In this document: positions 25,601 through 58,623 of the stretch, piece after piece | Position numbering within the stretch: position 1 is the first letter of the stretch | Layout of the letters: each line of letters begins with the position of its first letter | Source: Naegleria gruberi | Lineage: Eukaryota | Reading direction: 5' to 3' (one strand) | Length of the DNA stretch: 64,000 nucleotides | Assembly (NCBI GenBank): GCA_000004985.1 | Contig: GG738859.1 | The notes under the pieces: generated by a model | Told to the model about the DNA's origin: nothing | Seen by the model: only the letters and a program-made list of their open reading frames with translations | Databases searched by the model: none | Program-made: the position numbers and the translations under genes

Positions 25601-26151
25601 GAAAACCTCTTGGTTCTTGGATAGAAGATCTTGTTGAAAGAGTAGCATTCATGAGAGGTTGGTTGAGAAATGGATTACCAAAAGCATTCTGGCTGTCTGG
25701 ATTCTTCTTCCCTCAAGGCTTTTTCACTGGTGTTCTTCAAACTTACGCTAGAAAGTACAATGTAGAAATTGATTCCTTGTCATTCTCGTTCAGAGTTCTC
25801 TTCGAAATGACTCCTGAAGAAATCCATGAAGGCCCTGAGGACGGTGTTTATGTTTATGGTTTATACTTGAATGGTGCCAAGTGGAATAAGGAAAGAGACA
25901 CCCTAGAGGAATCAGAACCTGGAGAAATGAATGTGAAAATGCCAATTATTCACTTCCTTCCAGAGAAGAATCACAAAACATCACCAAAATGTTATGAGGC
26001 TCCACTTTACAAGACCAGTGAAAGAAAAGGAAAACTATCCTCTCTTGGTCAATCAACAAACTTTGTTATTTCAGTAGAGTTACCAACAGAAAAACCACCA
26101 GCCCACTGGATATCTGAAGGTGTTGCTCTGCTTTGCCAACTAGATATTTAA
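13658..26151 (+). CDS. Axonemal dynein heavy chain, single-headed inner-arm type (~4,090 aa); 4 exons
   Basis: Exons are ~13658..14156, 14200..14382, 14432..25285 and 25328..26151. Introns are GTTGGT...AAAAG, GTTAGT...TTTTAG and GTAAGT...TTTTAG. The N-terminal region motif is YYTLSATGVTHFINGEADFTPLTRWVQEHDTFQKILKIKFFANFRKWKAF. The AAA1 P-loop is GPAGTGKTE, AAA2 is GPTGGGKSE, AAA3 is GKTGVGKTS and AAA4 is GVGGSGKQS. Coiled-coil stalk, AAA5/6 and the conserved C-terminal domain (FWLSGFFFPQGFFTGVLQTYARKYNVEIDSL) are all present. The start codon is uncertain. Confidence 0.85.
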
Positions 26152-37323: not shown

Positions 37324-40300
37324 ATGCCACCATCACGATTTAGAAAGGTAATTGAGGATGATGAAGAGGAAATTCCTACTACAAGAGAGGATGTGGAGAG
37401 TGAACAAATCAAAGGTAGGAAAACTGAGAAGAAAGGAGGAATCAAAAGGAAAATTGTAGAATCTGATGATAGTAGTAGCAGTGAAGATGAGTTGGACGAA
37501 AGGCTTGAGTTGACTGATGAAGACGATATCGAATCTCTTTCTTCCAGAGATTCACCTGTGGTAGAATATGATGACAATGATGAGGAGATGGAAGAATATC
37601 CACAGTATAATAGATTATTGGAGAGTAAGTTTGCATACTAGCAATTCATATAAAATCTCTTATATTCAAAGTTGAAAAGGCTATTCTTGATAAACTTGAA
37701 GGAAGGTCTTGTGATCAGCAATTGATAATTCACTCCATTGAGATGAAAAATTTCAAATCATACAAGGATAACACACTGGTTGGTCCTTTCACCACTGGAT
37801 TAAATTGTATCATTGGATCTAATGGATCTGGAAAGAGTAATATTATCGATTCGATTTGTTTTGTGCTTGGATTTGAGTCTAAAGAGTTAAGAGCTAAGAA
37901 TCTAGACTACCTCATCAATGATCAGTGTTCATCTGATGAAGAGTCATTTGTCAAAATCAACTTTAATGTGATGAATGGTAAGAATGATTGTTTCAAGCAG
38001 TTTAGTATTCAAAGAAAGATTAAAAGAAATGATCACACAAGCTCCTACCATCTCTCTTCACCAAATGAGGAATCCAAAAAGATAACAAAAAAACAAGTGA
38101 GGGAATTACTGAATGAGTATGGAATTGACTTTGATTATCCTGATAGATTTATTGTTATGCAACATAATACCATAAAGATGGTAAAGCAAAACCCTTTAGA
38201 AATGCTGTTCCATCTTGAAAAATTATTTGGTACTGATAGAGTTCAAATTGAAATTAAGCAAGTTCAGGAAGATATTACAAAGCTCAGATCCGATATTGAA
38301 ATACATGAGAAAGAAAAGAATGATTGTGAAAAGGATCTAGAGTTATTAAAACCTATAGTCGAACACTATCAAAACTTTCAAAAGTTAGAAAAAAAGGTGG
38401 AGGAGACAAAAGCATCCATAAAAGAGAGTGAGCTGAAATGCCTAACATTCAAACTAGACAAAAGCAAGAGGGAGCTAAAGTCAATTACTTCTGAAATATC
38501 TTCTTTAGAAAGTAATCGTTCAAACTCAAAGATAGAAGAACAGCAACTGAATGAAAGTACTCAGAAACAAGTAGAGAAAATGGACACCACAGAAAAGGAA
38601 CTAGACCAGATAAAGAAAGTCACATCCAAGATTCAAAAGAATCTACTGAGGGTAAGACTTGAGAATGATTCCTACAATCAAAAAGTTCAGCACTTTGAAA
38701 TGGAATTAGAAAGAACCTCAAAGGAGTCTATTCAATTAGGAGAGGAAAAGAACGATTTGAATGTAATGAATTGTCATACAGAGGAAGATATTAAGTATTT
38801 AGAGAATTGCATTAACAGTCTTGAAAATGAGATTAATAGATTGACATCAAACATAGATGATGAATCTCAACAAATATTGATAGATTTGCAAAGAGAATTA
38901 AACGAGATAGTAACAAGTTATCGTTATACAGCATTAACATCTCGTAGTGTTAAATTAAGGGAATTGGAGGAGCAGATCGAAATTTTGAATCAAACATTTG
39001 ATCAAAAACAAAAAGAGAAAGTGGGCTTAGAAAATTATATGGAAGAAATTTCTGAATTGAAGAAATTAGCAGACTCAGAAGCCAGCATATTAGGAGATAA
39101 CTTGAAGAGAGTCCAAGAATCAATAGAACTCAAAAAGAAGCAGAGAATCAAGATAGAAGATGAAATATTTGACTTAGAAACATCCTCGATTCAAAAAGAG
39201 GAAGTTAATTCTCTTTTTTTAGATACCATAAAGAAAATTAGATCAGGGATAGATGGATGTTTTGGAACAATTCCAGAGATTTATAGAATCACTGATCAGA
39301 AATATGCAGTTTCCGTAAACTCAGTGCTTCATCCTTATTTAAAGAATACAGTAGTTGTTTCAAGCAGAGAAGTGGCATTGAAGGTAGTGAAGTTTTTTGA
39401 AAATGATCGTGCAGGATTGGTCAGTTGTGAAATTCTAAATGAGCTGAAGTTGTTGCCAAACCAATCCAGCACTAATCCTTTAGAATTGAAGCCACTTATT
39501 GAAGTTCTGGAATGTGAGGCTCAATACAGACCCTTACTAGAAAAGCACACCCAAGGATGGTTCATTACTGATTCGATAGAATGTGCAATGAAATACTCAT
39601 ATCATAACGGCAAAAGAAGAAATATTGTTACTCTCGATGGAAAGATATTTAAAAGCTTTGGAGAAATATCTTGCCACTATTCCAAAGATACTACCCCTCA
39701 CCAGATCAGTACTCAGTATTCTAAACTCAATACAAATTATTCAGATCATAACAAAGACATTGAGTATTTGTCTATTTTGAAAAAAAAGTTTAAAGATCTA
39801 GAGGAAATATGTGAAAGTCTCATCATGTCAATGAATGACATTAAGCAATCCATATCAGAAAAGGAAGTATTAACAAGAAATTATCAATCCCAAATCAAAA
39901 AAATTGGCTCTTCACTCTCAACTCTTTCCAGAAAATTGATATCTATCAAGAAGGATTTAGAGAGCAAACAGGAAACCTTCAAAAATACTATTTTAGCTCC
40001 AACTGAGGAAGCAGAGTTATTAGAAATAGAGACAATCAAGAAAGAATTAGAAATGAAAATCCATACTATTGAGAGTGTCGATAACAGTGGAAATTCATTG
40101 CCGAACCTCAAGAAAACCTTGTCAGAAAAACAAAAGGAGCATACTGTACTCAACAAGTTAAAAGAAACACAAAGCAAGAGATTGAATCAAATATCAGCTC
40201 TATTATCAAACCTTGCAGCAAAAAGAGAAAAATACACTAATGAATTAGATATTTTCAGAAAAGAAAACAATCAAGAGGAATTAGATTCATTAGAATCAGA

Positions 40301-41204
40301 AGTAGACTCTCTGAAAAGGCAAAAAGGTAAACTCGAATCAAAAAAAGAGGATTATTGTAACAAATTAAAAGAATTCAGACGAAACATTAAAAAATTAAGC
40401 CAAATAATTAATGAGAAAGACCTTCAAATCTCTAGAAAAGTGCAAGATAAGGAAAAAATCCAAGAGGATATCGACGAGCTAAAGTTGTCCATTTCTAAAA
40501 TAGCACAAAGTAATATCTCTTTGAAAGTAGACACAAAACTAGACTTGGAATTAGAGGAAAGGAGAAGGCTCAAACTGATATCTGAGCTCAAGCACATAAA
40601 TTCAGAACTGGAAGGTATACAAGATAGTGTGGATAAAAATTGTTTAGAAAAACAATCAACAGCCAAGAAAAAGCTGAAATTCACTAATAAGAGGCTCAAT
40701 AGTATCAATCAAAGAATTGAGAGCCTCGAACTATTGGAGTCAAAATTTCTTACCTTACGATATGAATTGTTTCACAAGGTTATTTCCAAAATTAATGAGA
40801 ACCTCTCTCAAATATTCAGAGATTTGAATAACAACTCAAACTGCTACATTTCTTACTATGAAGACAAGAAGACATTATTTGAAAAGGGTGTCAATATTTA
40901 TTGCAAGTACGATTCAGAGTGGAAAGAGTTTAGTAAGCTGTCTGGTGGTCAGAAAAATCTGGTTTGTTCTGTTCTTTCTAAAGCGCTAATGAGATGTTTT
41001 TCAACCAGTATTTGTATCTTTGATGAATTATGTAGCAGTTTAGACACCATCAATGTAGAGAAATTAGCCAAGCTCATCAAAAGCAGCTCTCTCAAAACTC
41101 AGTTCATTTGCATATCATTCAAGTTTTACGAGAAGGCAGATCATATCATTGGAGTATACCACCAAAATGGTGTTTCTTGTACTGTCCCATTCTCTAATAA
41201 ATAG
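37324..41204 (+). CDS. SMC-family ATPase (condensin/cohesin-type head, hinge, coiled coils), divergent; 2 exons
   Basis: Exon 1 (37324..37624) is an acidic, Ser-rich N-terminal extension. A 47-nt GTAAGT...TTCAAAG intron follows. Exon 2 (37672..41204) begins IEKAILDKLEGRSCDQQLIIHSIEMKNFKSYKDNTLVGPFTTGLNCIIGSNGSGKSNIIDSICFVLGF (Walker A head, closest by eye to SMC4/SMC2). Long coiled coils follow. The hinge-like segment is IRSGIDGCFGTIPE...VVVSSREVALKVVKFFENDRAGLVSCEIL. The C-terminal head is FSKLSGGQKNLVCSVLSKALM...ICIFDELCSSLD...QFICISFKF, where the signature LSGGQK is kept but the D-loop is degenerate. Confidence 0.75.
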
Positions 41205-41207
41205 AAT

Positions 41208-44200
41208 TTATTGTACATTAGTTAGTAAATCCCTGATGTTGTACTTCAAGGAGAACAGGTTTTGTTTGTTCTCTATTAGCAAACCAAGACCATCCACCCA
41301 ATTATTGTAATCTCGCTCATCAAAAGTAACAAATTCCATCTTTTTCTTATCAGTAATAATTATGAGCGAGAATCCACCTTCAAGATTTTTGTTAGTTGAT
41401 TCTTTGCTCTTGGAAACCTTGTCAATATGTTCAACCTTCAAAAACGATTCTGGAACTTTCTTCTTATTGTCTCTTATTAATATTCTCGTAAACTCCTGCG
41501 ATAAGCATACGTGCCTTAATACATATTCCGTATTGGACTTTTTCTTATGCAATAGGGTACCATTACACATGAACTGGAATTTATCCAGAACAAATTGAAC
41601 ATCCTCCTTACTCAAAGGTTTTGAATTTGGCCCAAACAATTTATATTGTTTGGATGCCAATAATCTTGAAATGTTTGATGAGGCAACACCAACAACACCA
41701 CCATTTGATGGATTAGCAACGGTTGTGTTGGTAGAGGTATTGGTAGGCTTTTTAGGTGTTGTGGTTTGAGGAGCTTTTTGAGTGGTTTCAGTTGTGACAG
41801 GTGTTTGATCCTTTGTTATTTCTGGCTCATTTTCATATTGTTCTTCCTCACTACCCTCCAGTGAATTATTTGAGTTTTCAAGAGTATGATCATCATTCTC
41901 GTGTCCCTCGTTTTCTCTCTCTGCTAAATCTGTATAGAAATCTTCATCAAAGTCCTCTAAAGAATTAGGATCCTTATTTCTCATATACATGCTATAGTAA
42001 CCACTCTTAGAAACTGGAGGAGGATTTGATTTCTCGTTCTTACTTGGCTTGATCGATCTCATTATAATATCTGCCCCACTGTTCTTCACATTTTCTACTG
42101 CTTGTAATTTGAGCTCCAATCTATGTCTTAAATGTTGTCTCTGAGCTCTTACTTGTGATATTTTGCCTGTATATGATGCCTCGATATCTTCTAAGTTCTT
42201 CTTCATGGCAGCAAGTTGTTTCTTGAGTGTCATTGTTGAATTTGTCAAGTTATTTAATTCTTTCTCTATCACAGAAATACTCTTTTCCAAAGGTTTAGTG
42301 ACTGAATCATAATCAGCAATAGTTTCTTTTACATCCTCCTCTATTATAGCTAAAAGGTTATCAATTTCTTGAACTCTTGTTTCTATTGAGACTTTTTCTT
42401 TTGTAATTTCACTTTCGAATTGTTTCTCTTGATTTGCAAGACTTTCAATTTCCCTTTCAAGGTTTTCTTTTTGGTTTATCATTGAATCAATTTCTTCGTT
42501 CGCTTTTTCTAACTCATCCTGCTTTTCTATTTTTTGTTTGTTGATTACCTTGACTTGGCTTTCAACATTATTGCTGGCATCAACATATTGAGAAACCTTG
42601 TCACATTTGCTTGTATCTACAATTCTTTGGATAACATCTTTGATTTGATAATAAGATCCAACCAATGCCTCACACCTAACAAATCTTTCCTCTGTTAATT
42701 TCATTTCATCATCTGTGCAATTCTCGATTTTATCTGCCACTTGTTTCTCAACTTCCTCTTTCTCCTTGTTATAACTCTCTTCGATTTCGTTCAATTGCGA
42801 AACAATTGATTCTATTTCTTCGTCACACTCTTGTCTATCTCTGATTAATCCTCCTATTTGTTGCTCTAATTCACTGACAATATTTGAAAAATGACCAAGT
42901 CTTTCTAATTCTCCCCTTTTTCGCTCTGAGTTTTCCCGCTCAACTTCTCCAATTGAGGATGAGGATATCTTTTCTTTGGCAACCTCGACCAACTTTTTAT
43001 CTTTCTCAAGTTTATCCCTTATCATGGAAATGTACTCTTCTCTTTCCTTTGATCTCTTTCTCTCAATGTCTATAAATGATTTAGATTGGTTAATATAGAG
43101 TTTCTTGAATGTATTGACTATAGACTCATATGGCAATTTGAAACCGATTTGATCAAATTCTATTGCTTCCCCAAGAAAATTGGCATTGAATGAATCAACA
43201 CACTGTCTTAGTTGTTGGAAATCAAGTTCTTCAGAAGAAAGTTCTAAAGCATGAGCAAGAATAGCCTCTGTTTCCTCTATTTCAATAGACATGGTATGTA
43301 CATAATTCTCAAGAGCTGAGAGTTTTCTCAATTCATTTTGAAGGTTTTCAATCCCGCTCTCCTTCTTGGATACATATTCTTGTTTTGCAGATAGGTTCTC
43401 TTGCTCCAATTCCTCAAGAATGATCCTCTTTTCGTCTATTAACTCACAAACTTCTTGTCTCTTAGATTCTGCATATACTTTCTTGGAATTAAGCTCGTCT
43501 ACAGCTCTATTATATTCAAACTTCAAGTCTATCAGAAATATCTCTAAAGGAAACTTTTCTCGTAATCTTTCTGTCCTTAAATAAATTTCTTTTTCTCTCC
43601 TTATTAATGTTGTGAGATTCTTTTTTTGGTCATCAGTCAATGTAGATCCTTCCAAAATCATTGAATTAGTTGATATTTGGGCTAACCACTCTGATTCATC
43701 ATTCTCCAGCTCTTTCAGATAACAATCAATGTCACTAATTTTGCTTGCAATCCTCTCAATGGTTGCATTAACTTCTATTAGCTGGTCTCTCTTTTGAATC
43801 AATTTGTCATCAACAGGATTTCTCCTTAAATCTGTTGGGATAGATAGGAGTGAATCCCTCTCTTTGATTAAATTGTTCTTTTTTTGCTCGTTTTGGATTA
43901 TTAGGTCTTTCAATTTTTTCTTTTCTCTTGTTAAAATCTTCAACTCTTTATCTTGTTTTTTCTGTAAAGTGTCAATCTTTAAATACATATTTTCGAGAGA
44001 GGTTTGTTTTTCCTTAATAATTATCTTTTCTTTTTCACATTCTTCTCTCTTTTGATTTTTGATTTCTCTTTCTTTTTGATCAAAAATTGAGATGGCTTTT
44101 TCAATCTTAGAAATTTGAGAGCTAACATCCTCTAACCTGTCGCTAACTAGTCTTTGTCTGTCTAATTCTAATGGGTTGTGGTCTGGTTGTGGGGCTATTT

Positions 44201-44642
44201 TAATAGATTTTGGAGTTACTGACTTTGTTTGAGGAGGAGGTCGGGTTTTTTGTGGTGGAGAATCCTTTACTGCGACTGGTTTGGGGGTTTTCTTTGTAGT
44301 TTCAACTGCTTCAACCTTGTTACTTCTTTTAAATACAGGCTCTTCTTCGTCATCACTTCCATCAGAAAATCCAGCTTCCTCCAAATCCTTTTCAATAGCT
44401 TCAAGCAATGACCTTGATGGAGAAATAAGTATACTATCCTCATCTAAAAGTTGTTGAGCCTCCTTTAGAAGCACTTCCCTTTCACTAATTCCTTTCCGAT
44501 TAGAAGTTTTTTGTTTTTGGTTGGGTTCTTGTTGCCTCAACCTTTCCTTAAAATCAGCAATTTCATCCTTATCTGATGATGCAAGAGGAGACGATTGCTT
44601 TCCACCACCTCTCATTGATTTTGGTTGTTGTGTTGGTGGCAT
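41208..44642 (-). CDS. Long coiled-coil protein with a C-terminal PH-like domain
   Basis: The 1,144-aa ORF has a basic/Pro-rich N-terminus. About 800 aa show heptad-like K/E/L/I periodicity. An acidic S/T-rich linker follows. The C-terminal ~130 aa (KQYKLFGPNSKPLSKEDVQFVLDKFQFMCNGTLLHKK...GGFSLIIITDKKKMEFVTFDERDYNNWVDGLGLLI) have a PH-fold-like pattern. Family unassigned. Confidence 0.5.
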   Translation of the reverse strand: MPPTQQPKSMRGGGKQSSPLASSDKDEIADFKERLRQQEPNQKQKTSNRKGISEREVLLKEAQQLLDEDSILISPSRSLLEAIEKDLEEAGFSDGSDDEEEPVFKRSNKVEAVETTKKTPKPVAVKDSPPQKTRPPPQTKSVTPKSIKIAPQPDHNPLELDRQRLVSDRLEDVSSQISKIEKAISIFDQKEREIKNQKREECEKEKIIIKEKQTSLENMYLKIDTLQKKQDKELKILTREKKKLKDLIIQNEQKKNNLIKERDSLLSIPTDLRRNPVDDKLIQKRDQLIEVNATIERIASKISDIDCYLKELENDESEWLAQISTNSMILEGSTLTDDQKKNLTTLIRREKEIYLRTERLREKFPLEIFLIDLKFEYNRAVDELNSKKVYAESKRQEVCELIDEKRIILEELEQENLSAKQEYVSKKESGIENLQNELRKLSALENYVHTMSIEIEETEAILAHALELSSEELDFQQLRQCVDSFNANFLGEAIEFDQIGFKLPYESIVNTFKKLYINQSKSFIDIERKRSKEREEYISMIRDKLEKDKKLVEVAKEKISSSSIGEVERENSERKRGELERLGHFSNIVSELEQQIGGLIRDRQECDEEIESIVSQLNEIEESYNKEKEEVEKQVADKIENCTDDEMKLTEERFVRCEALVGSYYQIKDVIQRIVDTSKCDKVSQYVDASNNVESQVKVINKQKIEKQDELEKANEEIDSMINQKENLEREIESLANQEKQFESEITKEKVSIETRVQEIDNLLAIIEEDVKETIADYDSVTKPLEKSISVIEKELNNLTNSTMTLKKQLAAMKKNLEDIEASYTGKISQVRAQRQHLRHRLELKLQAVENVKNSGADIIMRSIKPSKNEKSNPPPVSKSGYYSMYMRNKDPNSLEDFDEDFYTDLAERENEGHENDDHTLENSNNSLEGSEEEQYENEPEITKDQTPVTTETTQKAPQTTTPKKPTNTSTNTTVANPSNGGVVGVASSNISRLLASKQYKLFGPNSKPLSKEDVQFVLDKFQFMCNGTLLHKKKSNTEYVLRHVCLSQEFTRILIRDNKKKVPESFLKVEHIDKVSKSKESTNKNLEGGFSLIIITDKKKMEFVTFDERDYNNWVDGLGLLIENKQNLFSLKYNIRDLLTNVQ

Positions 44643-44704: not shown

Positions 44705-45424
44705 TTATTCCAATCCATAGTTTTCCTTAATACGTTTTCTAGTTTGTTCAATTTTTTCCTTCTTATAACGCTTCGAGTCATCTTCAGTAGTTGAAGCATC
44801 AGAAGAGGTTGGTTCATAAGAAGTTGGTTGAATGGTTCCAGGAGTCATAAATCTATTACTTGTTGAGTAACCAGTCATTGGTTGTTGGAAGTTTCTTCTT
44901 TGCATTTCATCTCTACGAATGATTTCTTCTGGATCGAAAATTCTACTAGCTCCATTTGAGTCATCTTGTTGGAATGATGGTTGTGTTCTTCTACGATCAG
45001 TAAGACAAGCATGTGACATGACGAAGAATACTGTAAAGATATATCCTACAAAGAGAGTGGTGTACATTCCAGAGACGAGAACGAGCAATACGAGAGCAAA
45101 CAAGCAAGTGAGAATGGCCAAATTTTTGGTAACCTTTATACGACGCAAAACAATGATGTTGTCAGACTTGTGATAGGCCAAGAAGAAGAAAAGACTTAGA
45201 GCAAGGATTAAAACAGGGAAAAATAAATAGGAGAAGAGCATTGGTAAACACAACATAATCATGTTGATGAGCAAATAATTAGTTTGGAAAAATGTAATAG
45301 AATCCAATATTCTTGCTCTAAGTGGTTGTTTGTGATTTCTAAGTGAAGTATAGGCAAGAAATTCTCTAAGAGGTCGAAGAGGTGGAAGGAGTGGCTCCAC
45401 GTCAATAATTCCTGGTGTGATCAT
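44705..45424 (-). CDS. PRA1 family protein (prenylated Rab acceptor/Yip3-like)
   Basis: The 239-aa ORF reads LRPLREFLAYTSLRNHKQPLRARILDSITFFQTNYLLINMIMLCL..., followed by two long hydrophobic hairpin segments typical of PRA1/Yip3. Confidence 0.7.
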   Translation of the reverse strand: MITPGIIDVEPLLPPLRPLREFLAYTSLRNHKQPLRARILDSITFFQTNYLLINMIMLCLPMLFSYLFFPVLILALSLFFFLAYHKSDNIIVLRRIKVTKNLAILTCLFALVLLVLVSGMYTTLFVGYIFTVFFVMSHACLTDRRRTQPSFQQDDSNGASRIFDPEEIIRRDEMQRRNFQQPMTGYSTSNRFMTPGTIQPTSYEPTSSDASTTEDDSKRYKKEKIEQTRKRIKENYGLE

Positions 45425-46740: not shown

Positions 46741-47439
46741 TTACATCTTTTTGAAACTGATTCGCATTGGTTGTTGTTTAATCTTCCATGATTGAAGACC
46801 TTCTCTAGCAGATGTAGCTTGTTCAATAGTTTCATATTCCACAAAGGCAACACCTTTCTCTCCTACCAATCTCAATTTCTTATATCCATCATAATTGTTG
46901 AATAATGTTTCAAGTAATTCTGAACTCTTTTCAACATCCCTTGGTAAATTTTCAATGAAAAGTACACTGCTTGGAACCAGATTTTCTTCCCTCCTAGATT
47001 GTTTAGATGATTCTTGTTTAACTTTCTTTGGTTTTTTCTGTTCTGGTTCTTCTTCAAGTCCGTGTTTAGCTCGTTTTTGTTCAACTCTCTTTGCTTTATA
47101 TTCTTCATAATTTCCATCTAATTTAGCTGTAGCATCACTTTTAGATTTTGCAAAATTAATATGCATTGGCTTATCATGGAATACATATCCATTTAATTTC
47201 TTCTTTGCTGCTGTTGCTGTTGCTACATCTTTAAATACAATAAAAGCTTGTCCTCTAGTCTTTTCATATCTACTTGCTATGACATCCAAAACTTCTCCGA
47301 ATTGTCCAAACATACTATATAATTGTTTTTTAAGAGTAGGCACTTTGATCTTTTCATTAATATTATTTATGTATATTGTGTTGTTTGGCATGATTTGTTC
47401 CTGATCATCGCCTGTAATTTCTTGTTGTGGTTGTTGCAT
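46741..47439 (-). CDS. SNRPA: U1 snRNP A / U2 snRNP B'' (two RRMs)
   Basis: RRM1 of the 232-aa ORF is PNNTIYINNINEKIKVPTLKKQLYSMFGQFGEVLDVIASRYEKTRGQAFIVFKDVATATAAKKKLNGYVFHDKPMHINFAKSKSD. RRM2 is VLFIENLPRDVEKSSELLETLFNNYDGYKKLRLVGEKGVAFVEYETIEQA. A K/E-rich linker separates them. The order matches the U1A/U2B'' family. Confidence 0.85.
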   Translation of the reverse strand: MQQPQQEITGDDQEQIMPNNTIYINNINEKIKVPTLKKQLYSMFGQFGEVLDVIASRYEKTRGQAFIVFKDVATATAAKKKLNGYVFHDKPMHINFAKSKSDATAKLDGNYEEYKAKRVEQKRAKHGLEEEPEQKKPKKVKQESSKQSRREENLVPSSVLFIENLPRDVEKSSELLETLFNNYDGYKKLRLVGEKGVAFVEYETIEQATSAREGLQSWKIKQQPMRISFKKM

Positions 47440-48986: not shown

Positions 48987-51900
48987 TTATTTCTTCTTGA
49001 TTATTTCTTCTAGATCATAGAGTGCTTCCTTAGCACCAATACGTTTCTTTGGATTGGAGACTAGACATGATTTGATAAGGGATGAAATTCGTTTAGGTAT
49101 GTTTTTCAATTCGAATTGATAATCCATTTCCTTGACGAATCTATCTTCATTTTGACAAATAGCAATCACTGCAATACTGGCATCCATTTCTAATCCTAAT
49201 ATCAGACCTGCCATTAAGATTCCAAATTGGAAAATGTCCAGTCTATCTGTAACAATATTTTGCGCTGTTGGATTTTGGAAAAAGTATTCAGGTGCAATAA
49301 ATACGCAATTTGTTTTGGAATTTTTCACTTGAGCTTCTTCAAATGATGAGAGAAGAACCTGTTCAATGTCATCATGATAGAGAATTGTTTGAGTATTAAC
49401 ATGACAATGAACAATATCTTGTGTGTGTAAGTAATTGAGGGCTTCTGCTATTTCTGAGGCTAATCTACAAACTTGGAGAGTTGTGAAGATTGTTGGAGGG
49501 GAAGATGAAATACTGGTCACCACTGATAGGGTATTCTTATTATCTTCTTCATCGAGATATGGCTTTCTTTCAGTATTGGAAAGAGAATTGATATTTGAGG
49601 AATAGGATGGAGTTAAATCACTAACAGAAACGTTATTGGAACGAGATCTCTTATATAAGATGAAATAATCAAGAGTGTTCATTTCATAGAATGGCTCTAC
49701 TAAACAGTGCATATTGATCCATGAAAATTTGTGAATGACAGGGGCTATGGATTTTGTGTAATGACACGAATTGAACATGGAATCAATAATATTAAATCCA
49801 TTAAAATAAAAATCAATATTATCAGTTCCATTCGTGACAACATTATTGATATCATCCATATAATCATCGCAGTATGGTAACTTTACAATCTTTGGTAAGT
49901 TCTTTTGTTGAGAGTTAGTTTGTGGTACAATAGTCATACAAGAATTAATGGGTAAGCATGTTATCTTGAAAGTATGCTCAGAATTTCCATATTTTCTTCT
50001 TTTAGAAGCAAGTAGTATTTCCTTTCCTCTCTTTGATTCCATAAATTTAGTAATTTTCAATTTTTCTATACTAATAAATTGATTAATGGCCCTCATAGAA
50101 AAAACTTCTGGAGTAAAACCTAACTGTGTCAGTGAGAGTACTCTTCTTGATGGTTTGTACAAACCCTGTACCTCCATATTATCTAGTGCAGAGAAGGAAT
50201 CCTCTTGATCTTCAATGTCATCCAAAGGGGTTGGAAGTCTGAGGGCAACCAGATTGTGTTTTTTAGAACTTTCATTGGTTTGGTAAGGAGCTGAAGATCC
50301 TTTAACAGGAGAAAAATTAGATAATGAGTTGATCTTTTTCAAAATATCTAACTTGAAAGAACCATATTGAAGTACCATCATTTTCGAATAAATAGACTCT
50401 GCCTCCTCTTCAGTCATGGTAAATGCACTTGTTGATTGTGAAGAGCGTTGAAACAGGCTTATTTGCGTATTATTTGATTTATCAGTATCCCAATATATGT
50501 TTTGTACTCCTCTTCTCAAAAGCATTTCAATATCTTCAATTGTTTCATAGAGGTCTTTGGATAGTATTCTCTCCTCAGGATGCACTGTCAACATTTGATT
50601 AACAATAATATCGACCAATCTCTCGTATAAATCTAAAAACTCTGTATCATATCTATAGTTCAATAAAATCATCTCTCTAATGTACACTCGTTTGGCATGA
50701 ATAGAAGTGGCATTAATGAGAGTTTCTAAAGACAAATCTAAACCTAGTATTTGGTAGAACAGTATACCTAGTGAATAAATATCTGAGGAATTGATAAGTG
50801 TCTCAGATATCGATTCCTTAATGTTAATACTGCAAACACTTTCCAGATCATTGTCACTTGAAATGTTTAAATTCTGAGAGGCCCATATAGGCGATGAACT
50901 CCTAATATAAATATTCTTTTTTGGACCATTAGTGATAAGATCTTTTAGCTCAGGGGAGTGGTATTCTGTAATTGATTTTTGATCGAATGAATATCTATTT
51001 GGGAATAATTTAAAATCGTTAAGGAATTTGTTTCCAGTAATCATAAATGTTAAATGGATAGAACCTGATGGATTGGGTATGGAAGCACTTGGAGATGGAG
51101 ATCCACCTTGTCCATCAATGGCAACACAAGAACTCCTCCTAAAACTTTCTGAAGAAAGGGCAGCATCTGATAATAAATGTTGAGTTGCCATACTTCTTCT
51201 GATATTTTCACTCAGACTGGATGAGCCTGCTTTTTGTAATATGGAAATTTTTGGAAAAGGATCTGTCAATATGACATCATAAGTTTGTTCAGTTGAAGTT
51301 TGACTGGTCATAGAATCTGATCTCTTTTTTGAAAAAAAGGATCTTGTTACTCGATTATTTGTAGTATGTGGTACTAAGAATATGTTTTCAGGTTTTAAAT
51401 TATGATGGGAATATCCCAGTTGATGTATCTGTACAACAGGAGCTAATATTTGTTTGAATAGCAAGATAGCTTCCAGTAATGAGAGATTTTTCCCCAATGT
51501 CTTTTGTTTTGAGATTACTGAGCTTAAATTTCTGTCAAAGTATGGCATGACAAGCATGACAAGAACTTGTTGATTTCCAGATGGAGAATTGAAAAAATTC
51601 TTATCCACATAAATCTTGAAAAACTTGTCATCCACCTTCTTTTCATCTCTTCTCGTGTTATGAAAAGTCATATACCAATAATTTTTCAATTCTTCAATAT
51701 ATCTTTCCAAAGGGAAAGAACCTGATTGATGAGAGTAGCTGTACCATTCATTAATTGTGCATTTGAAGAATTTTACAACAACTTGTCTACTGTTTGATGA
51801 ATATAAAGAAGATGAAAATTGTTTAGCTTGTTGGAGATTGTTTTGACTGTTTGTAAATTCCGATGTTCCACAAGATTGTTTTTTGTGTGCAACTTCTGTT

Positions 51901-52409
51901 GCTGAATAGGTATTTCCATGTTTTTCATCCAATCGTTTTAATTTAGTATACTTTTCGCAAATATACCACAAATTTGCATTTGGCTCCTCTTGGGGTGGTG
52001 AATTATTGGTCCACAGTTTCTTGTTTCTTCTCCTCACAACGACATGATCCATATGGAAGGTAATTTTAGAGTTGAGAGATTTAAAAACATTGGATTTCTC
52101 GCTTATTGTGTGGTGATGTGTTTCACTTGATGATTCCAATGCACTAAATTTTGAATCGAGTGCAGCTGATGATGATGGTGATGGTGACTTGAATGATTTC
52201 CTTCCATTACTTGTTGTTGAAGGAGAATGTGATGATGATTGTGGTTCCATGAATTCTGACTCATCGGAGGTGCCCAACCAATTCTCATAATCATTTCCAT
52301 CATCACTCCAGCCATCATCATGAGGAATAAATGTCGTTTCACTCGAAGAACTATCAATATAATCAGAGAATGAATTTGCAATTGCAGGAGAGGATTTATT
52401 TTGTCCCAT
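48987..52409 (-). CDS. Large protein with two degenerate protein-kinase-like domains (predicted tandem pseudokinase), Ser-rich N-terminus
   Basis: The 1,140-aa ORF has a first kinase-like domain ...VVKFFKC...VMLVMPYFDRNLSSVIS...IHQLGYSHHNLKPENIFLV (HRD->HHN). It has a second, C-terminal kinase-like domain ...ALNYLHTQDIVHCHVNTQTILYHD...FIAPEYFF...DIFQFGILMAGLIL (HRDLKPxN->HCHVNTQT). Low-complexity S/N-rich segments lie between them. The C-terminal tail is ...KRIGAKEALYDLEEIIKKK. Confidence 0.6.
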   Translation of the reverse strand: MGQNKSSPAIANSFSDYIDSSSSETTFIPHDDGWSDDGNDYENWLGTSDESEFMEPQSSSHSPSTTSNGRKSFKSPSPSSSAALDSKFSALESSSETHHHTISEKSNVFKSLNSKITFHMDHVVVRRRNKKLWTNNSPPQEEPNANLWYICEKYTKLKRLDEKHGNTYSATEVAHKKQSCGTSEFTNSQNNLQQAKQFSSSLYSSNSRQVVVKFFKCTINEWYSYSHQSGSFPLERYIEELKNYWYMTFHNTRRDEKKVDDKFFKIYVDKNFFNSPSGNQQVLVMLVMPYFDRNLSSVISKQKTLGKNLSLLEAILLFKQILAPVVQIHQLGYSHHNLKPENIFLVPHTTNNRVTRSFFSKKRSDSMTSQTSTEQTYDVILTDPFPKISILQKAGSSSLSENIRRSMATQHLLSDAALSSESFRRSSCVAIDGQGGSPSPSASIPNPSGSIHLTFMITGNKFLNDFKLFPNRYSFDQKSITEYHSPELKDLITNGPKKNIYIRSSSPIWASQNLNISSDNDLESVCSINIKESISETLINSSDIYSLGILFYQILGLDLSLETLINATSIHAKRVYIREMILLNYRYDTEFLDLYERLVDIIVNQMLTVHPEERILSKDLYETIEDIEMLLRRGVQNIYWDTDKSNNTQISLFQRSSQSTSAFTMTEEEAESIYSKMMVLQYGSFKLDILKKINSLSNFSPVKGSSAPYQTNESSKKHNLVALRLPTPLDDIEDQEDSFSALDNMEVQGLYKPSRRVLSLTQLGFTPEVFSMRAINQFISIEKLKITKFMESKRGKEILLASKRRKYGNSEHTFKITCLPINSCMTIVPQTNSQQKNLPKIVKLPYCDDYMDDINNVVTNGTDNIDFYFNGFNIIDSMFNSCHYTKSIAPVIHKFSWINMHCLVEPFYEMNTLDYFILYKRSRSNNVSVSDLTPSYSSNINSLSNTERKPYLDEEDNKNTLSVVTSISSSPPTIFTTLQVCRLASEIAEALNYLHTQDIVHCHVNTQTILYHDDIEQVLLSSFEEAQVKNSKTNCVFIAPEYFFQNPTAQNIVTDRLDIFQFGILMAGLILGLEMDASIAVIAICQNEDRFVKEMDYQFELKNIPKRISSLIKSCLVSNPKKRIGAKEALYDLEEIIKKK

Positions 52410-52885: not shown

Positions 52886-55051
52886 ATGTCGTTTTTAAAT
52901 CCTCCAGAGATGTCAATTATTGTTACTCCAAGTTTAGATGAAATAGAACAGAGTGATTTGGAGAGGAAACAATTGGAGCAAGAGGAAATTGAAGCTGAAC
53001 GACTTCTTCCCGAGAGTTTTGATTTCACCAAGCTGAAGAAGCAATTATCATCGGAAAATATTGCAAAGAAATCCTTCACTGTGGATCCTGAGCAATTGAT
53101 AAACACTGTAACAATGTTACTTGAGACAGTGGAAAAGCAGGAAAAGAATATAAGGTCACTAGCAAAAGCAGTCGCTCAAAAAAGCGATTTTTCATTGAGC
53201 AGGCAGTCATCATTTAATACCGGTGTTATGATTACTGATCCACCAAAGAAGGATCTTCCATCCTCCAGACCAACCACTCCAAAAGTTGTACATAAGGAAA
53301 CTGTTTTTGTGAGGGAGGATGATCCTTTTATGAAGAACCAAATCCATAATTTAAACAATGAGTTTGCTATAATTCAAGAGGAATATACTCAACATGAAAC
53401 AAGACTCACAGAAGTCGAGGCTATTGTTCATGAACAATTAACAGAGGAGAAAATGAAAACTGAAAAGAAAATTGATGAAGCTAAAGAAATGATTACAGTA
53501 CTCAAATTTGACAAGGAGGAGTTGAGAAAACAAATGGATCAATTGAGACTGGATGTAAAAAAGGGATTGGAGGAAAATATTGAGTTTTTATCAAACGAAA
53601 TCAAGACACATTTTGATATTTCGAATGAAAATTTAGAAAGGCTTCAAGATGATTACAACCAAAAAATATCAGCCGTAAATTCTGACTTGGGATCCAAAAT
53701 TGTGGACATATCAAATAAGGTGGAATATAATTTTATGATATTTAAGGAACGAACGGAATCTCAAAAAAATGAAATTGAAGAACTAAAGTTCAGACTGACG
53801 AAACTGGAAGAAAATTTACTGAAAAAGATGGAAACCTTGTCAGATAAAATGGATAAGAATTTTCGATTACTGGAGAAGGATACCCTGAAAACTAACTACA
53901 TAACCAATCTGTTGTACGACGTATTTCAGCTGGATAAACATCTAATCACTGACTTGAATGATACATATGTACAGGAAAAGTTTCAAGCTAAGGAAGATAT
54001 TGGAAAATATTCCAAAATGAAAAAGGAGAAGAACAGACAAGAGTACAGAAAGATGTATACAGACATGTTAATGACCACTCCATGTTTTAAAACAATATAC
54101 GACAATTCCACAAACATTGTAAACGAGTTGAGATGGGAAACCAAATTAAGAATGGACAGAGAGGGTGACAAGGTGTTAGAAGAGTTTACTGATATTCGAG
54201 AATGTATGAAACGGTTTGTGACATTTCCAGAAGTGCGAGCAGCAATTAACGAGAATGAAATAGTGAGACAAGTAGTCAATACTGTGGGTACTCATGAAAA
54301 ACATATTGATACAATATTTACAAATTTTTTACCGAGAGAAGAGGCTTGGGAAGCCCTCAAACAAAAAGCAGATGAAAAGAATGTAGAGTTGAAAGCTGAT
54401 CGAAAGATTGTCAATGCTCTATTTGACTATTTGAACGAGAAATTGAATACTATTCTTGGGAAAACATCTACAGAAGAAATGATGGTATCTATTAAAAAGC
54501 TTGAAGAGAAAATCAAAAGTAAGGCAGATAAGCAGGAACTTATAGAAGCCCAGCAACCAATTTACCCTCCAAATATAATTAATATCGTGCGAAAGGATAT
54601 TTCTACAGAGGATCTAGTGGTAGGAATGGGTGTGAGTCAACCATGTCTCATGGCAAAAGGAGAATCCGAACAAAGTCACTCCAGTTCGTACAGATGCCTT
54701 AGTTGCAGTCGACCACTCTCTTCCAAAACGCCTTCAACAGCACCATCCGGTTCTCCTCCAAAAAGACAAAACTATTTAACTAACTTTGATCCTCTTCCTG
54801 TTCAAGCCTTAAGTGGAAATGAATCTGCTAGAGGAAAGTTGGGAACTACGTTGGGAGATCTTCAACAACAATTTCAACAACAACTTCAATTACAAATCAA
54901 TCCAAACACTAGCATTCAATCTGATAGTCCAAATACAAGTCCAAAGAAGGGAGAAAAAGAAAAACCAAACCTTATTCCACCAAGTAGCCCATCTGACTTT
55001 TTCGAAATACCCAAACTAAATTTGAAAAAAGTAATGATATCTGCAGAGTAA
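52886..55051 (+). CDS. Coiled-coil protein (721 aa) with C-terminal Cys cluster and Pro/Ser-rich tail
   Basis: About 550 aa of the ORF show K/E/L heptad periodicity. The C-terminal region is ...CLMAKGESEQSHSSSYRCLSCSRPL...GSPPKRQNYLTNFDPLP..., with a QQQFQQQLQLQ tract. A downstream ORF (55090..55521) could be a 3' exon via a GTAAGT...AAGAG intron, or a separate gene. Confidence 0.5.
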   Translation: MSFLNPPEMSIIVTPSLDEIEQSDLERKQLEQEEIEAERLLPESFDFTKLKKQLSSENIAKKSFTVDPEQLINTVTMLLETVEKQEKNIRSLAKAVAQKSDFSLSRQSSFNTGVMITDPPKKDLPSSRPTTPKVVHKETVFVREDDPFMKNQIHNLNNEFAIIQEEYTQHETRLTEVEAIVHEQLTEEKMKTEKKIDEAKEMITVLKFDKEELRKQMDQLRLDVKKGLEENIEFLSNEIKTHFDISNENLERLQDDYNQKISAVNSDLGSKIVDISNKVEYNFMIFKERTESQKNEIEELKFRLTKLEENLLKKMETLSDKMDKNFRLLEKDTLKTNYITNLLYDVFQLDKHLITDLNDTYVQEKFQAKEDIGKYSKMKKEKNRQEYRKMYTDMLMTTPCFKTIYDNSTNIVNELRWETKLRMDREGDKVLEEFTDIRECMKRFVTFPEVRAAINENEIVRQVVNTVGTHEKHIDTIFTNFLPREEAWEALKQKADEKNVELKADRKIVNALFDYLNEKLNTILGKTSTEEMMVSIKKLEEKIKSKADKQELIEAQQPIYPPNIINIVRKDISTEDLVVGMGVSQPCLMAKGESEQSHSSSYRCLSCSRPLSSKTPSTAPSGSPPKRQNYLTNFDPLPVQALSGNESARGKLGTTLGDLQQQFQQQLQLQINPNTSIQSDSPNTSPKKGEKEKPNLIPPSSPSDFFEIPKLNLKKVMISAE

Positions 55052-55596: not shown

Positions 55597-57267
55597 ATGA
55601 AAAGAAGTGCTTCTGCATCTTGTGAAGGAGAAGAGCCTTCCAAGAAAACAAAACAATCTATGGAGCAAAACTTTATTTCGGAATTGGAAGAGATTGTAGA
55701 ATATTGTCGTGAACAATTCGAAAAAGAATCGGAAGACCCAGATTTCATTGCTGCAGAAATTGGAAATATTCAGAGGAAATTTTACGATTTGCAGAACAAG
55801 TATGAAAAATTCAAGACAATAATTTTAAAAGAGACTTTTACTGACTTGGAAGACTTGGAAACTATGTACAATGAAGCTGATGCAATGCTCAATGAGGCTA
55901 AAGAAGCATTGGCTTCATTTATTGCTTCTGAGGAAAAAACAGAAGGTGAAATCGAAACAGACGAAAATATTGAAAATTTCATTCCACTACCTGAGCTAAA
56001 TGAAGAAACAGAAGTAATACCATTTGAAAGAAGTGAATTAAGAGTAGAAAATATAGAACCCATCCCACTCTTAACATCAAGAAGTTGTTACATTTGTCAG
56101 AGACCCATTGAGAACTCCCCTGTAGTCTGTAAATATTGCTCTAACGCTTGCCATGGCCAATGCTGTGATAAACCAACAATACTGAGAGGAGAAGATACTA
56201 TGATTTGTGAAGTGTGCAGTTCAATCGAGACTGAAGGAGAACCTAATTTTTATTCACTGATAATTAAATCAAAGAATGGAAATGTTACACATGTTAATGA
56301 TATTGGTAATCAACTGAAAGGATTAAGCATTGATAAGTACAAAATCAAATGCCCAAAGTGTCAAGAATTAGTTGCACTAAAAGATTTAAATAGTCACACT
56401 GGAAGAAAATTTGAGTTTGATAAGTTTAGTGACTACCCTTTTGTTCCTTTTTCAGACGAGAAGAATAGAGCCGAAATATCTAGAGTTTTGATTGTTTTCA
56501 ATATCAGCAAAAAGACATTAACCAATATTTGTGAAAGGTACGAAAAAAGGATTGGTCCAGTGGAAATCAATGACATGTATTTAAATGATTCATATGGTAA
56601 TTTTTCAATGCACAAAGCTGTATTCATAACCTTAGAATCTGAAAAGCAAAGTTTTACACTTGCATTGTTTCTGAGCTCGTATTTAATAAGGAAGAATGGG
56701 TAAGTTTTTTTCACGTTTTAGCTTGCAATTTCAATGCAATTTAGTACTGATATCAATGTTCATCCTGTTGTATATTTTTGGAAGTCAAAAGCATTTCAGA
56801 TAGTTATTCCAAGCAAACACGAAATGGAGCTTGTCATACCACCAAAATTGGATGATTTTATTGAAAGAAAGTGGCAGGTAGCTTCAGACACTTCCAATAC
56901 CTTTTATGTAGTATTGAAGGATGTGGCTTATTGTTTTGCTCTTTTGAATACTGTACACGGATTAGTATTGGATAATAAGCAAATTGCAAAAGTTAAAGCA
57001 ATTCAAAATCCTGACACAGACAAGAGGACTGTATTAATTCTAAATATTTATTACGCCTCTATAGAACAATTCAAATATTTCATACTTGATTGTAATACTA
57101 GCTTTGATTTTGATTGGGACGTAATGGTTGAGGAGGATGGATGCCAAATGTTGGAGGACGAAAATTCAATTTCTATCAAGTTTCAATCTGAAGAAATTGC
57201 AAAAGCATTTGTAAATGATTTTAATGATTCCTTATTTAACGAACATCATTTACAAATGTTTAATTGA
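55597..57267 (+). CDS. Hypothetical protein with PHD/treble-clef-like Cys/His zinc fingers and a conserved-looking C-terminal domain; 2 exons
   Basis: Exon 1 (55597..56699) has an acidic coiled N-terminus and CYICQRPIENSPVVCKYCSNACHGQCCDKPTILRGEDTMICEVCS...KIKCPKCQELVALKDLNSHTGRKFEF. A 45-nt GTAAGT...AATTTAG intron follows. Exon 2 (56745..57267) is TDINVHPVVYFWKSKAFQIVIPSKHEMELVIPPKLDDFIERKWQV...FNEHHLQMFN*. Confidence 0.5.
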
Positions 57268-57312: not shown

Positions 57313-58623
57313 ATGTCAACACCAAAATTGTACAAATACAGAAATCACAAAAAAGCTTCAAACAACAAAAAAATGTCCACAACAGAATCCAAGTCAATTT
57401 TCTCCAGAATTATTTCATACATTACCTCATGGTTTATGTATATTGTTCAAGCAATTTATTCTCTCTACAAGGATGAATTAGAAAGACAGTCACGAGACGA
57501 AACTGACTATAAAAAGTGGAAACTCTACGAAGAAATACAAAGAAACCAAGAACAACCTCAACAATATGATGAAGAAAGTGTTCTCGGAGGAACTTGTCCT
57601 TCTACAAGCACAGTTTCCATACAAGAACTAAAATCATCTTCGGAGAAGGAAGACGAAACTACAAAGATAGCAATTGAAGAAGATAAGAAGACTACCACTT
57701 CTCCTATTAAACAAGAAATTCCTGTCACTTCCTCTGTTACAGAAAAGGTTGTAGAGAAGGAAGAATCTCCAATGGTTGTCATCATCAAACCTAAAGTTGT
57801 CATCAGTGAGCCAACACCAATTGTTGAAAAGAAACCAGTAGAACAAGATAACAAACCTGTCATCACCAAACCAATCAATCCAATTATTGAAGAAACAAAG
57901 AAGATTCCAAATGAAACTGTCATCCAATCATCACCTCCTAAACCTGTCAAAGAGCCAGTTGCTGCCACAACTAAAATTACTCCAAAATCGACAAGTAATA
58001 GTACTAACAATGTTGCCACTCAACCAACAACTACTGCAACACCAGAAAAGCAATCAAAACCTGCTGAAATTTCAGGACTCATTGGAGAACGTTTAAAGAT
58101 GAAGAAGTTTAGAAACTTTTCTGGAAATGCATACAATTCCTTAATCAAACCAAGTAGTAAGGAAGATGCAAACAATAAGAAGGAAGTTACATCTAGTACT
58201 ATCACTACTCCAGTCGCTTCAACTCAAGAGGTAATTCAACAATCTAATAACCAACTCATTCAAAGAAAGTTGAGTTCCAAACCAAAGAAGGTTTCAAGAC
58301 GTCCTTCTCAACAAACCATCAAGCATTCAGATATTTTGGCAAAATTAGAAGAAGAAGCAACTATTGACTTGCCAGATGTTGAAAAATTCAAAGAATTGGA
58401 AGAATTTTCTCAATTGGAAAAGAAGGTTGGTCTCGAAAATGCAATCAAACAAACGAAGGAAAAGAAGAGTACAACTGCTCCACCACCTCCACCTCTTTCT
58501 CAAGTTGTAAATGTAAATACTAATGATGCCTCTCCATCCAAAACAAAGAGTGCTAAGGTCACACTTGATGCCATCTTGAATGCCAAGGGTTCACTCAGAA
58601 AAACCACTGAAGAATGGAAGTGA
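57313..58623 (+). CDS. Hypothetical disordered protein with N-terminal hydrophobic anchor, poly-Pro and a C-terminal WH2-like actin-monomer-binding motif
   Basis: The 436-aa ORF has a hydrophobic N-terminal segment SIFSRIISYITSWFMYIVQAIYSLY. It is P/T/K/E-rich in the middle. Near the end it reads TAPPPPPLSQ... followed by SAKVTLDAILNAKGSLRKTTEEWK*, which fits the WH2 pattern LLxxIxxGxxLKKT. Confidence 0.4.
   Translation: MSTPKLYKYRNHKKASNNKKMSTTESKSIFSRIISYITSWFMYIVQAIYSLYKDELERQSRDETDYKKWKLYEEIQRNQEQPQQYDEESVLGGTCPSTSTVSIQELKSSSEKEDETTKIAIEEDKKTTTSPIKQEIPVTSSVTEKVVEKEESPMVVIIKPKVVISEPTPIVEKKPVEQDNKPVITKPINPIIEETKKIPNETVIQSSPPKPVKEPVAATTKITPKSTSNSTNNVATQPTTTATPEKQSKPAEISGLIGERLKMKKFRNFSGNAYNSLIKPSSKEDANNKKEVTSSTITTPVASTQEVIQQSNNQLIQRKLSSKPKKVSRRPSQQTIKHSDILAKLEEEATIDLPDVEKFKELEEFSQLEKKVGLENAIKQTKEKKSTTAPPPPPLSQVVNVNTNDASPSKTKSAKVTLDAILNAKGSLRKTTEEWK

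Follow-up and report, generated by a model that had tools for sequence, protein, structure and literature searches.

A Naegleria protein with two tandem protein-kinase folds, neither of which has the catalytic-base Asp

Results

A single-exon Naegleria gene with two kinase-like regions

The stretch of Naegleria gruberi DNA analysed here (64,000 nucleotides of contig GG738859.1, assembly GCA_000004985.1; hereafter the window) is AT-rich (∼34% GC) and densely packed with long open reading frames (ORF). One of these, at 48987..52409 (−), opens at the first in-frame start codon downstream of a stop and encodes a protein of 1,140 amino acids (aa). Its product is 100% identical, over the full length, to XP_002679077 / NAEGRDRAFT_47835 / UniProt D2V9Y3 from N. 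gruberi, and the annotated gene is therefore a single exon. The database name of this uncharacterised entry is "predicted protein", and literature searches found no mention of the identifiers of the protein or of its orthologue, nor anything on the protein among the results listed for Naegleria pseudokinases and for the N. gruberi kinome. We find that the gene encodes a Naegleria-restricted protein with two protein-kinase-fold domains in tandem, neither of which has the catalytic-base Asp (Table 1).

A sequence-only reading of the window had proposed that this protein carries two degenerate kinase-like regions. As assessed with the Pfam Pkinase profile (PF00069), for which the curated cut-off is 31.7 bits, the whole protein scores 83.2 bits (E 2.6e-23), and each of two separate regions exceeds the cut-off on its own. 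The N-terminal half scores 39.2 bits (E 6.8e-10) and matches in two collinear pieces (aa ∼283–350 on profile positions 72–135, and aa ∼540–621 on positions 176–258), and for the C-terminal part the score is 49.8 bits (E 4e-13), with aa 974–1130 on positions 94–258. The possibility that only one region is kinase-like is thus not what the profiles return, and such profile evidence shows both domains to be members of the protein-kinase superfamily. Pkinase aside, no family was significant in the Pfam scan of the protein. Among the PDB matches listed, the closest solved kinases by sequence are MELK and GSK3 for domain 1, and RAF, MST4, CDPK, titin, and PDK1 for domain 2; as judged from these sequence matches, the nearest solved kinases give no specific kinase-family assignment. 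When compared with each other by BLASTP, the two domains share 27% identity over 92 aa only (E 1e-4), with an hhalign probability of 81%. Because this likeness is no greater than that of either domain to generic kinases, a recent internal duplication was rejected.

To map the distribution of the protein, phmmer was run exhaustively against 1.84 billion (1.84e9) cluster representatives. Only three proteins have E < 1e-30, namely the query, an N. fowleri protein (M1H0Q5 / AGE43968, "putative Naegleria-specific protein"; also XP_044558992, 1313 aa), and an environmental protein of 1201 aa encoded on a 6.6-kb ENA metagenome contig (ERZ27315067, k141_1328050). Next, at 64 bits, comes a generic kinase that, like the other top matches, aligns with the C-lobe of domain 2. 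The top non-orthologous proteins that match in several stretches were rejected as relatives, since they are multi-kinase proteins of different architecture, with intact HRD and DFG motifs, whose scores are summed over domains. A word-indexed search for homologues did not return the environmental orthologue in either of its full-length runs and, with domain 2 alone as the query, not even the entry of the query itself, and negatives from that search were not used. Among the 1.84 billion representatives all members are Naegleria or Naegleria-like, and by this sequence search the family is new and Naegleria-restricted.

Domain 1 is mildly degenerate

Key residues of domain 1 were assigned by hhalign profile-profile alignment of aa 140–640 to a reference kinase alignment anchored on PKA, the sequence of which served only as a numbering ruler. 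The whole domain (aa 153–632) aligns with the reference with a probability of 98.3% (E 2.4e-14). The catalytic loop HHNLKPEN, identical in all three orthologues, lies in the string HHNLKPENIFLV (aa 335–346) picked out by the sequence-only reading, and a PDB profile search with the orthologue profile lines up GYSHHNLKPEN with GYAHRDLKPEN of MELK. This register confirms that Asn337 stands in place of the catalytic Asp. The motif at the DFG position is DPF, DPF, and DPY across the three orthologues. A check of the other catalytic residues, which had been suggested along with the original proposal, finds the β3 Lys (K213), the αC Glu (E240), and the DFG Asp (D383) all kept. In sum, the catalytic-core losses in domain 1 are the Arg and Asp of HRD and the F-G of DFG, with no others.

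The Gly-rich loop reads LDEKHG in N. gruberi and DGKLGNV in the other two orthologues, and a motif scan found GxGxxG in none of the three. With five residues kept, namely the β3 Lys, the αC Glu, the Lys and Asn of the catalytic loop, and the DFG Asp, domain 1 is likely to bind ATP, as judged from its residues. It also harbors inserts at three sites, i.e. between β2 and β3, between DPF and SPE (∼96 aa), and between SPE and αF (∼50 aa). The first part of the activation-segment insert is Ser-rich and variable (22–41% identity). The end of the same insert (aa 461–487; 50949–51029), with the pattern K-x-LNDFK-x-FPNR-x-x-F-x-x-K-x-x-x-EY-x-SPE, is the best-conserved stretch of the protein. Its ∼65% identity suggests that this segment is a structured and functionally important P+1 or docking element, though substrate binding would not be needed here.

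These features bear on whether domain 1 might be a weakly or unconventionally active kinase, in which case the protein would pair an active kinase with a pseudokinase and could, for example, autophosphorylate its own Ser-rich inserts. Replacement of the catalytic-base Asp by Asn much reduces phosphotransfer without always abolishing it, and low residual activity has been reported for other domains with Asn at this position (HER3 and JAK2 JH2). Besides the five residues on which ATP binding is predicted, domain 1 keeps the APE Glu, the αF Asp, and the subdomain XI Arg, and in two of the three orthologues its Gly loop conforms to x-x-G-x-x-G-x-V. However, each of the three orthologues has Asn as the base, with no conserved Asp nearby that could compensate for it; the HRD Arg is His; the DFG position has lost its Gly and gained a Pro (DPF/DPY); and the activation segment is interrupted by the ∼96-aa insert. 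We consider activity of domain 1 doubtful, and favor a non-catalytic role for it.

Domain 2 is more strongly degenerate

Degeneracy is very unequal between the two domains at the sequence level. Whereas it is mild in domain 1, domain 2 has lost the DFG Asp and, from its catalytic loop, the Asp, the Lys, and the Asn. Its catalytic loop is found in the string HCHVNTQTIL (aa 1001–1010), as quoted in the sequence-only reading, and the orthologue profile lines up VVHCxVNTxS with IIHRDMKSNN of RAF1 in a PDB profile search, placing His1003 at the position of the catalytic Asp. The equivalent loops of the orthologues read HCNINTES (N. fowleri) and HGNISVSS (environmental), i.e. HCH, HCN, and HGN at the HRD position, followed by variable residues; the first His alone is invariant. 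S1022 replaces the DFG Asp, and the corresponding motifs in the orthologues are GYD and NFD, so that the metal-binding Asp is gone in all three proteins. Domain 2 nevertheless keeps an APE motif (aa 1039–1041), the αF Asp (D1058), and the subdomain XI Arg (R1123). The hydrophobic spine strings YLHTQDIV, APEYFF, and DIFQFGIL, which had been ascribed to both domains, are present, but all three lie in domain 2.

For aa 973–1137, hhalign gives a kinase probability of 99.96%. Upstream of this C-lobe the picture is less clear, because the Pfam and PDB matches of domain 2 begin only at aa ∼955–974. We therefore turn to an AlphaFold2 model of aa 731–1140, built from a 66-row alignment composed of the two orthologues and single-domain kinases from the exhaustive search, which has a mean predicted local distance difference test (pLDDT) score of 70.6 and a predicted template modelling score of 0.67. 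(A full-length model from a two-sequence alignment, with a mean pLDDT of 27, was not used.) In the model of aa 731–1140 the C-lobe has a pLDDT of 86–98 and the N-lobe of ∼55–75. The modelled N-lobe comprises β1 (785–793), β2 (796–804), β3 (811–820), an insert of low confidence (822–866), αC (867–879), β4 (893–897), and β5 (900–906), and is followed by αD (913–926) and a second low-confidence insert (929–975). As assessed by Foldseek, ∼375 columns of the domain 2 model match whole kinase domains (JAK1 JH1, PHKG2, FGFR2, and BRAF), with target-normalised template modelling scores of 0.63–0.71. The model thus supports a full kinase fold for domain 2.

Sequence methods conflict in this N-lobe, placing the hinge either at CLVEPF (aa 902–907) or at PYLDEED (aa 950–956), the latter with K894 as the β3 Lys. 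The PYLDEED/K894 register was not adopted as primary, because AlphaFold placed β4 at 893–897 and β5 at 900–906 although the input alignment favored PYLDEED; that the model departs from the hinge of its own input speaks for it. In the AlphaFold register the candidate β3 Lys and αC acid are K815 (K/R/K across the orthologues) and D876 (D/E/E); in the alternative register the candidate Lys is K894.

Alternatively, the protein might contain only one complete kinase-like domain, with domain 2 being a C-lobe remnant joined to an unrelated N-terminal segment. The late start of the sequence matches, the conflict between registers, and an hhalign probability of 0.25% (E 0.24) for aa 756–925 are all compatible with such a remnant. 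Yet AlphaFold arranges five strands and an αC-like helix in the canonical order, overriding a misaligned input hinge, and Foldseek aligns the whole model to whole kinase domains. In addition, APVIHKFSW resembles HPNIVKL, CLVEPFYEMNTLDYFI resembles the usual β5-hinge-αD pattern, and the modelled region is conserved. A remnant therefore seems improbable to us, and we retain the reading of domain 2 as a second kinase fold.

By definition, a pseudokinase is a kinase fold in which the VAIK Lys, the HRD Asp, or the DFG Asp, or more than one of them, is missing (PMC8141879). Both domains have a kinase fold that has lost at least one of these residues, and the losses are kept in the orthologues. A regular expression scan of the three orthologues detected no D[FLYWM]G that is conserved, and the sole conserved HxD of the protein is in F-H-x-D-H, which is part of a motif outside the kinase core. 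No canonical HRD or DFG is therefore present in a different frame of alignment.

Regions outside the kinase domains and conservation

All three orthologues start with MGQ[NS]KS, i.e. MGQNKSS in N. gruberi and N. fowleri and MGQSKSD at the likely true start of the environmental protein. The consensus for N-myristoylation (PROSITE PS00008-type) is Met1-Gly2, a small or uncharged residue at position 3, Ser or Thr at position 6, and no Pro at position 7. The shared start fits this consensus, and most likely directs co-translational N-myristoylation and hence placement on a membrane. While the absence of a globular partner domain was correctly noted in the sequence-only reading, this conserved myristoylation-type signal was missed. 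The environmental gene model itself starts 29 codons early, overlapping an upstream zf-C2HC gene (end 2232; L003:2210-2300), and the codons ATG GGT CAA AGC AAA TCA GAT for MGQSKSD are found at L003:2297, just beyond the end of that gene.

The N-terminal region was rightly described as Ser-rich, and with its 28% Ser and 17–33% identity between orthologues it is probably disordered. Between this region and domain 1 lies the motif SNVFKSLNSKITFHMDHVVVRRRNKK, the core of which (F-H-x-D-H-[VI]-x-V-R-R-[RK], aa 118–128; noted at 52044-52076, the region of aa 112–122) is present in all three orthologues. The linker that separates the two domains contains three conserved islands, EEEAESIY (aa 667–674), SP-x-x-G-x-x-APYQ (aa 700–710), and SL-x-QLGF-x-PE (aa 759–768), and AlphaFold predicts a helix (aa 767–781) directly ahead of domain 2.

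The three orthologues are roughly equidistant, with pairwise identities of ∼44–47% that are unevenly distributed. Identity is 42–63% in the N-lobe of domain 1 and the C-lobes of both domains, about 65% in the segment just before SPE, 32–40% in the domain 2 N-lobe, and 17–41% in the inserts and the N terminus, and HHNLKPEN, D-P-[FY], and SPE of domain 1 are invariant. From the contrast between the kinase cores, at 50–63%, and the inserts and N terminus, at 17–37%, we infer that both degenerate cores are maintained by selection, the ratio of nonsynonymous to synonymous substitution rates not being computable at such divergence. It had been argued that conservation of the degenerate motifs in related organisms would imply a scaffold function; they are kept in both orthologues found, which by that argument implies a non-catalytic role. 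Neutral decay of a pseudogene, or an artefactual fusion of two genes, is very improbable, as the low identity (∼45%) and the two in-frame segments by which the N. fowleri gene models differ are outweighed by unbroken ORF of 1140–1313 codons with the same domain order in three organisms, by conservation focused on fold elements and structural motifs instead of being even, and by an invariant HHNLKPEN.

The two segments that distinguish the N. fowleri gene models (L001:10001-13942, VFQX01000053) lie in the domain 1 inserts; both are present in XP_044558992 and absent from AGE43968. The longer one (41 aa, 123 nucleotides) is compatible with GT..AG boundaries after a 1-nucleotide slide, and the shorter one (23 aa, 69 nucleotides) is not GT-AG.

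Table 1. Features of the tandem kinase-fold protein and neighbouring genes in the window
Feature	Residues (aa)	Position in window	Strand	Basis or remark
ORF		48987..52409	(−)	Single exon, 1140 aa + stop; ORF scan and database identity
N-myristoylation-type start MGQNKSS	1–7	52389..52409	(−)	Gly2, Ser6, no Pro at 7; motif reading
Ser-rich N-terminal region	1–105	52095..52409	(−)	28% Ser; 17–33% identity between orthologues
Conserved pre-domain motif	106–131	52017..52094	(−)	Orthologue alignment
Pseudokinase domain 1, complete kinase domain with inserts	148–632	50514..51968	(−)	Pfam, hhalign, PDB profile search
Domain 1 partial Gly loop	157–174		(−)	
Domain 1 β3 Lys (VVVKF)	K213			PKA K72; kept; hhalign
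Domain 1 αC Glu	E240			PKA E91; kept; hhalign
Domain 1 hinge LVMPYF	283–291		(−)	
Domain 1 catalytic loop HHNLKPEN	335–342	51384..51407	(−)	HRD Arg to His, catalytic Asp to Asn337
Domain 1 catalytic base	N337			PKA D166; replaced by Asn; hhalign
Domain 1 catalytic-loop Lys	K339			PKA K168; kept; hhalign
Domain 1 catalytic-loop Asn	N342			PKA N171; kept; hhalign
Domain 1 DFG equivalent DPF	383–385	51255..51263	(−)	Asp383 kept, Gly lost
Domain 1 DFG Asp, within DPF	D383			PKA D184; kept; hhalign
Activation-segment insert, ∼96 aa, between DPF and SPE	387–482	50964..51251	(−)	
Domain 1 APE Glu, within SPE	E487			PKA E208; kept; hhalign
Second domain 1 insert, SPE (E487) to αF (D543)	492–540	50790..50936	(−)	Poorly conserved
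Domain 1 αF Asp	D543			PKA D220; kept; hhalign
Domain 1 subdomain XI Arg	R614			PKA R280; kept; hhalign
Inter-domain linker	641–782	50064..50489	(−)	Alignment and AlphaFold
Putative domain 2 N-lobe and inserts	783–972	49494..50063	(−)	AlphaFold model, Foldseek; no sequence-profile signal
Domain 2 kinase C-lobe, confident	973–1137	48999..49493	(−)	Pfam 49.8 bits, PDB matches, hhalign, pLDDT 86–98
Domain 2 catalytic loop HCHVNTQT	1001–1008	49386..49409	(−)	Arg to Cys, Asp to His1003, Lys to Asn, Asn to Thr
Domain 2 DFG equivalent SFE	1022–1024	49338..49346	(−)	Metal-binding Asp is S1022
SMC protein		37722..41204	(+)	Pfam
PH-domain protein		41208..44642	(−)	Pfam
PRA1-family protein		44705..45424	(−)	Pfam
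Two-RRM protein		46741..47439	(−)	Pfam
Coiled-coil protein		52886..55051	(+)	Sub-threshold DUF4795, 24.2 bits against a cut-off of 34.8

Neighbouring genes

Several genes around the ORF could be named from Pfam matches (Table 1). Farther away, the window contains an ORF of 3868 aa at 14545-26151 (+), and three ORF at 55597-56703, 57313-58623, and 60051-63905 (368, 436, and 1284 aa, respectively) gave no match to Pfam at E ≤ 0.001.

Discussion

How does this protein relate to known pseudokinases? Asn at the catalytic-base position is also found in HER3 and in JH2 of the JAK kinases. Like HER3-type pseudokinases, domain 1 has Asn for the catalytic Asp and keeps the β3 Lys, the αC Glu, the catalytic-loop Asn, and the DFG Asp; by analogy, it would be expected to bind ATP without efficient phosphotransfer and to have an allosteric or scaffolding output. 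In sequence, however, domain 1 shows no specific affinity to these proteins, the closest solved structures being MELK and GSK3, and a receptor, FERM, or SH2 context is missing. It also differs in its DPF motif, its large inserts between β2 and β3 and in the activation segment, and the lack of an active kinase in the same chain.

The sequence-only reading had placed the protein next to JAK-type and PEAK-type scaffolds, a comparison that is loose on both counts. Members of the JAK family consist of FERM and SH2 domains followed by the JH2 pseudokinase and the active tyrosine kinase JH1 (PMC8141879). Both they and the Naegleria protein have two kinase-fold domains per polypeptide, at least one of which is non-catalytic, but in the latter both domains are without the catalytic Asp, degeneracy is greater in the C-terminal one, and the Pfam scan found neither FERM nor SH2. 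PEAK proteins, for their part, have one pseudokinase domain that dimerises via SHED helices and does not bind nucleotides (PMC8141879). The three of them (PEAK1/SgK269, PRAG1/SgK223, and PEAK3) share with the Naegleria protein their large size, extended disordered regions rich in Ser/Pro, and a non-catalytic kinase fold with a scaffold role, which for the Naegleria protein is a proposed one. The latter differs in having two kinase folds in cis. PEAK structures were not among the 60 PDB matches listed in any of three sequence searches, SHED-like helices not having been searched for specifically.

In architecture, the closest counterparts of the protein are the tandem kinase proteins of plants and obscurin PK1-PK2. 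The plant proteins (WTK1/Yr15, RPG1, WTK3/Pm24, and Sr62) have two kinase folds, often including one pseudokinase (PMC6997164, PMC8956640), and similarly consist essentially of these two folds in tandem with no further recognisable domain. They differ in being kinase-pseudokinase, pseudokinase-kinase, or kinase-kinase combinations, with no pseudokinase-pseudokinase pair in either source, and in belonging to another lineage and to other kinase families; the homology found is that of the generic kinase fold only. In obscurin/UNC-89, a disordered linker separates two kinase folds and the pseudokinase PK1 has been proposed to regulate its neighbour (PMC13242403). The likeness lies in the two folds, the linker between them, and one pseudokinase, whereas PK2 is predicted to be active, these giant muscle proteins have many Ig/Fn domains, and their sequences are unrelated to the one studied here. 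On tandems of two pseudokinases our literature searches returned almost nothing, and no described example was found.

We propose that the protein is tethered to a membrane and works as a scaffold or allosteric module, the binding of which would be controlled by ATP occupancy of domain 1 and by phosphorylation of Ser-rich loops, a reading to which we assign a probability of about 0.6. It would act mainly as a scaffold or allosteric regulator, and not via phosphorylation of substrates. The residues kept in domain 1 place it in the nucleotide-and-cation-binding class, and those of domain 2 place the latter in the non-binding class. Domain 1 would thus most likely bind ATP with Mg2+ as a conformational or stabilising ligand, much like HER3, which exemplifies the class binding nucleotide plus cation (PMC8141879), and the most likely role of domain 2 is that of a nucleotide-free protein-interaction module. 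The long Ser-rich inserts, chiefly the ∼96-aa insert in the activation segment, are most likely disordered loops on which genuine kinases dock or which accept phosphate from them, and N-myristoylation at the MGQ[NS]KS start would bring the assembly to a membrane. Together, ATP occupancy of domain 1 and loop phosphorylation by genuine kinases would set what both kinase folds bind. A more specific version, in which the protein is a myristoyl-anchored, genus-restricted allosteric switch of two cis pseudokinases and the ATP-driven shape of domain 1 controls recruitment by domain 2 and the Ser-rich loops, is unlikely.

Several points weigh against the scaffold proposal. Function, for the protein and its orthologues alike, is inferred from sequence and model, and myristoylation is a motif prediction only. 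Because domain 1 is otherwise intact, its residues make weak or atypical activity possible, and the LDEKHG loop of N. gruberi, more degenerate than DGKLGNV of the orthologues, weakens the prediction of ATP binding for this species. As for domain 2, its N-lobe is without sequence-level support in hhalign (aa 756–925) and has a moderate pLDDT, and the alignment used for modelling was seeded with kinases, which makes the fold match partly circular; pairwise HMMER and hhalign, moreover, favor the PYLDEED hinge with K894 as the β3 Lys. Finally, none of the neighbouring ORF of the window is matched in the ±10 kb around the N. fowleri gene or on the contig of the environmental orthologue, and this unconserved neighbourhood gives no functional clue.

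Pseudokinases are an established class of scaffolds and allosteric regulators, and the present finding leaves current understanding unchanged. It is a real but fairly ordinary find, a solid upgrade of the annotation of a "predicted protein" and not a new kind of system. What is new is a three-member family with two pseudokinase folds per chain and no active partner domain, an arrangement hardly described in the searchable literature, which offers a natural case of the role of an Asn-for-Asp pseudokinase without a cognate active kinase attached. Because an orthologue is present in the brain-eating amoeba N. fowleri and no close relative was found elsewhere, the protein is a possible lineage-specific marker, or a ligandable target if it is true that domain 1 binds nucleotide. 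Should the switch version prove true, this tandem of two pseudokinases would be a Naegleria-specific signalling node that N. gruberi shares with the pathogen N. fowleri.

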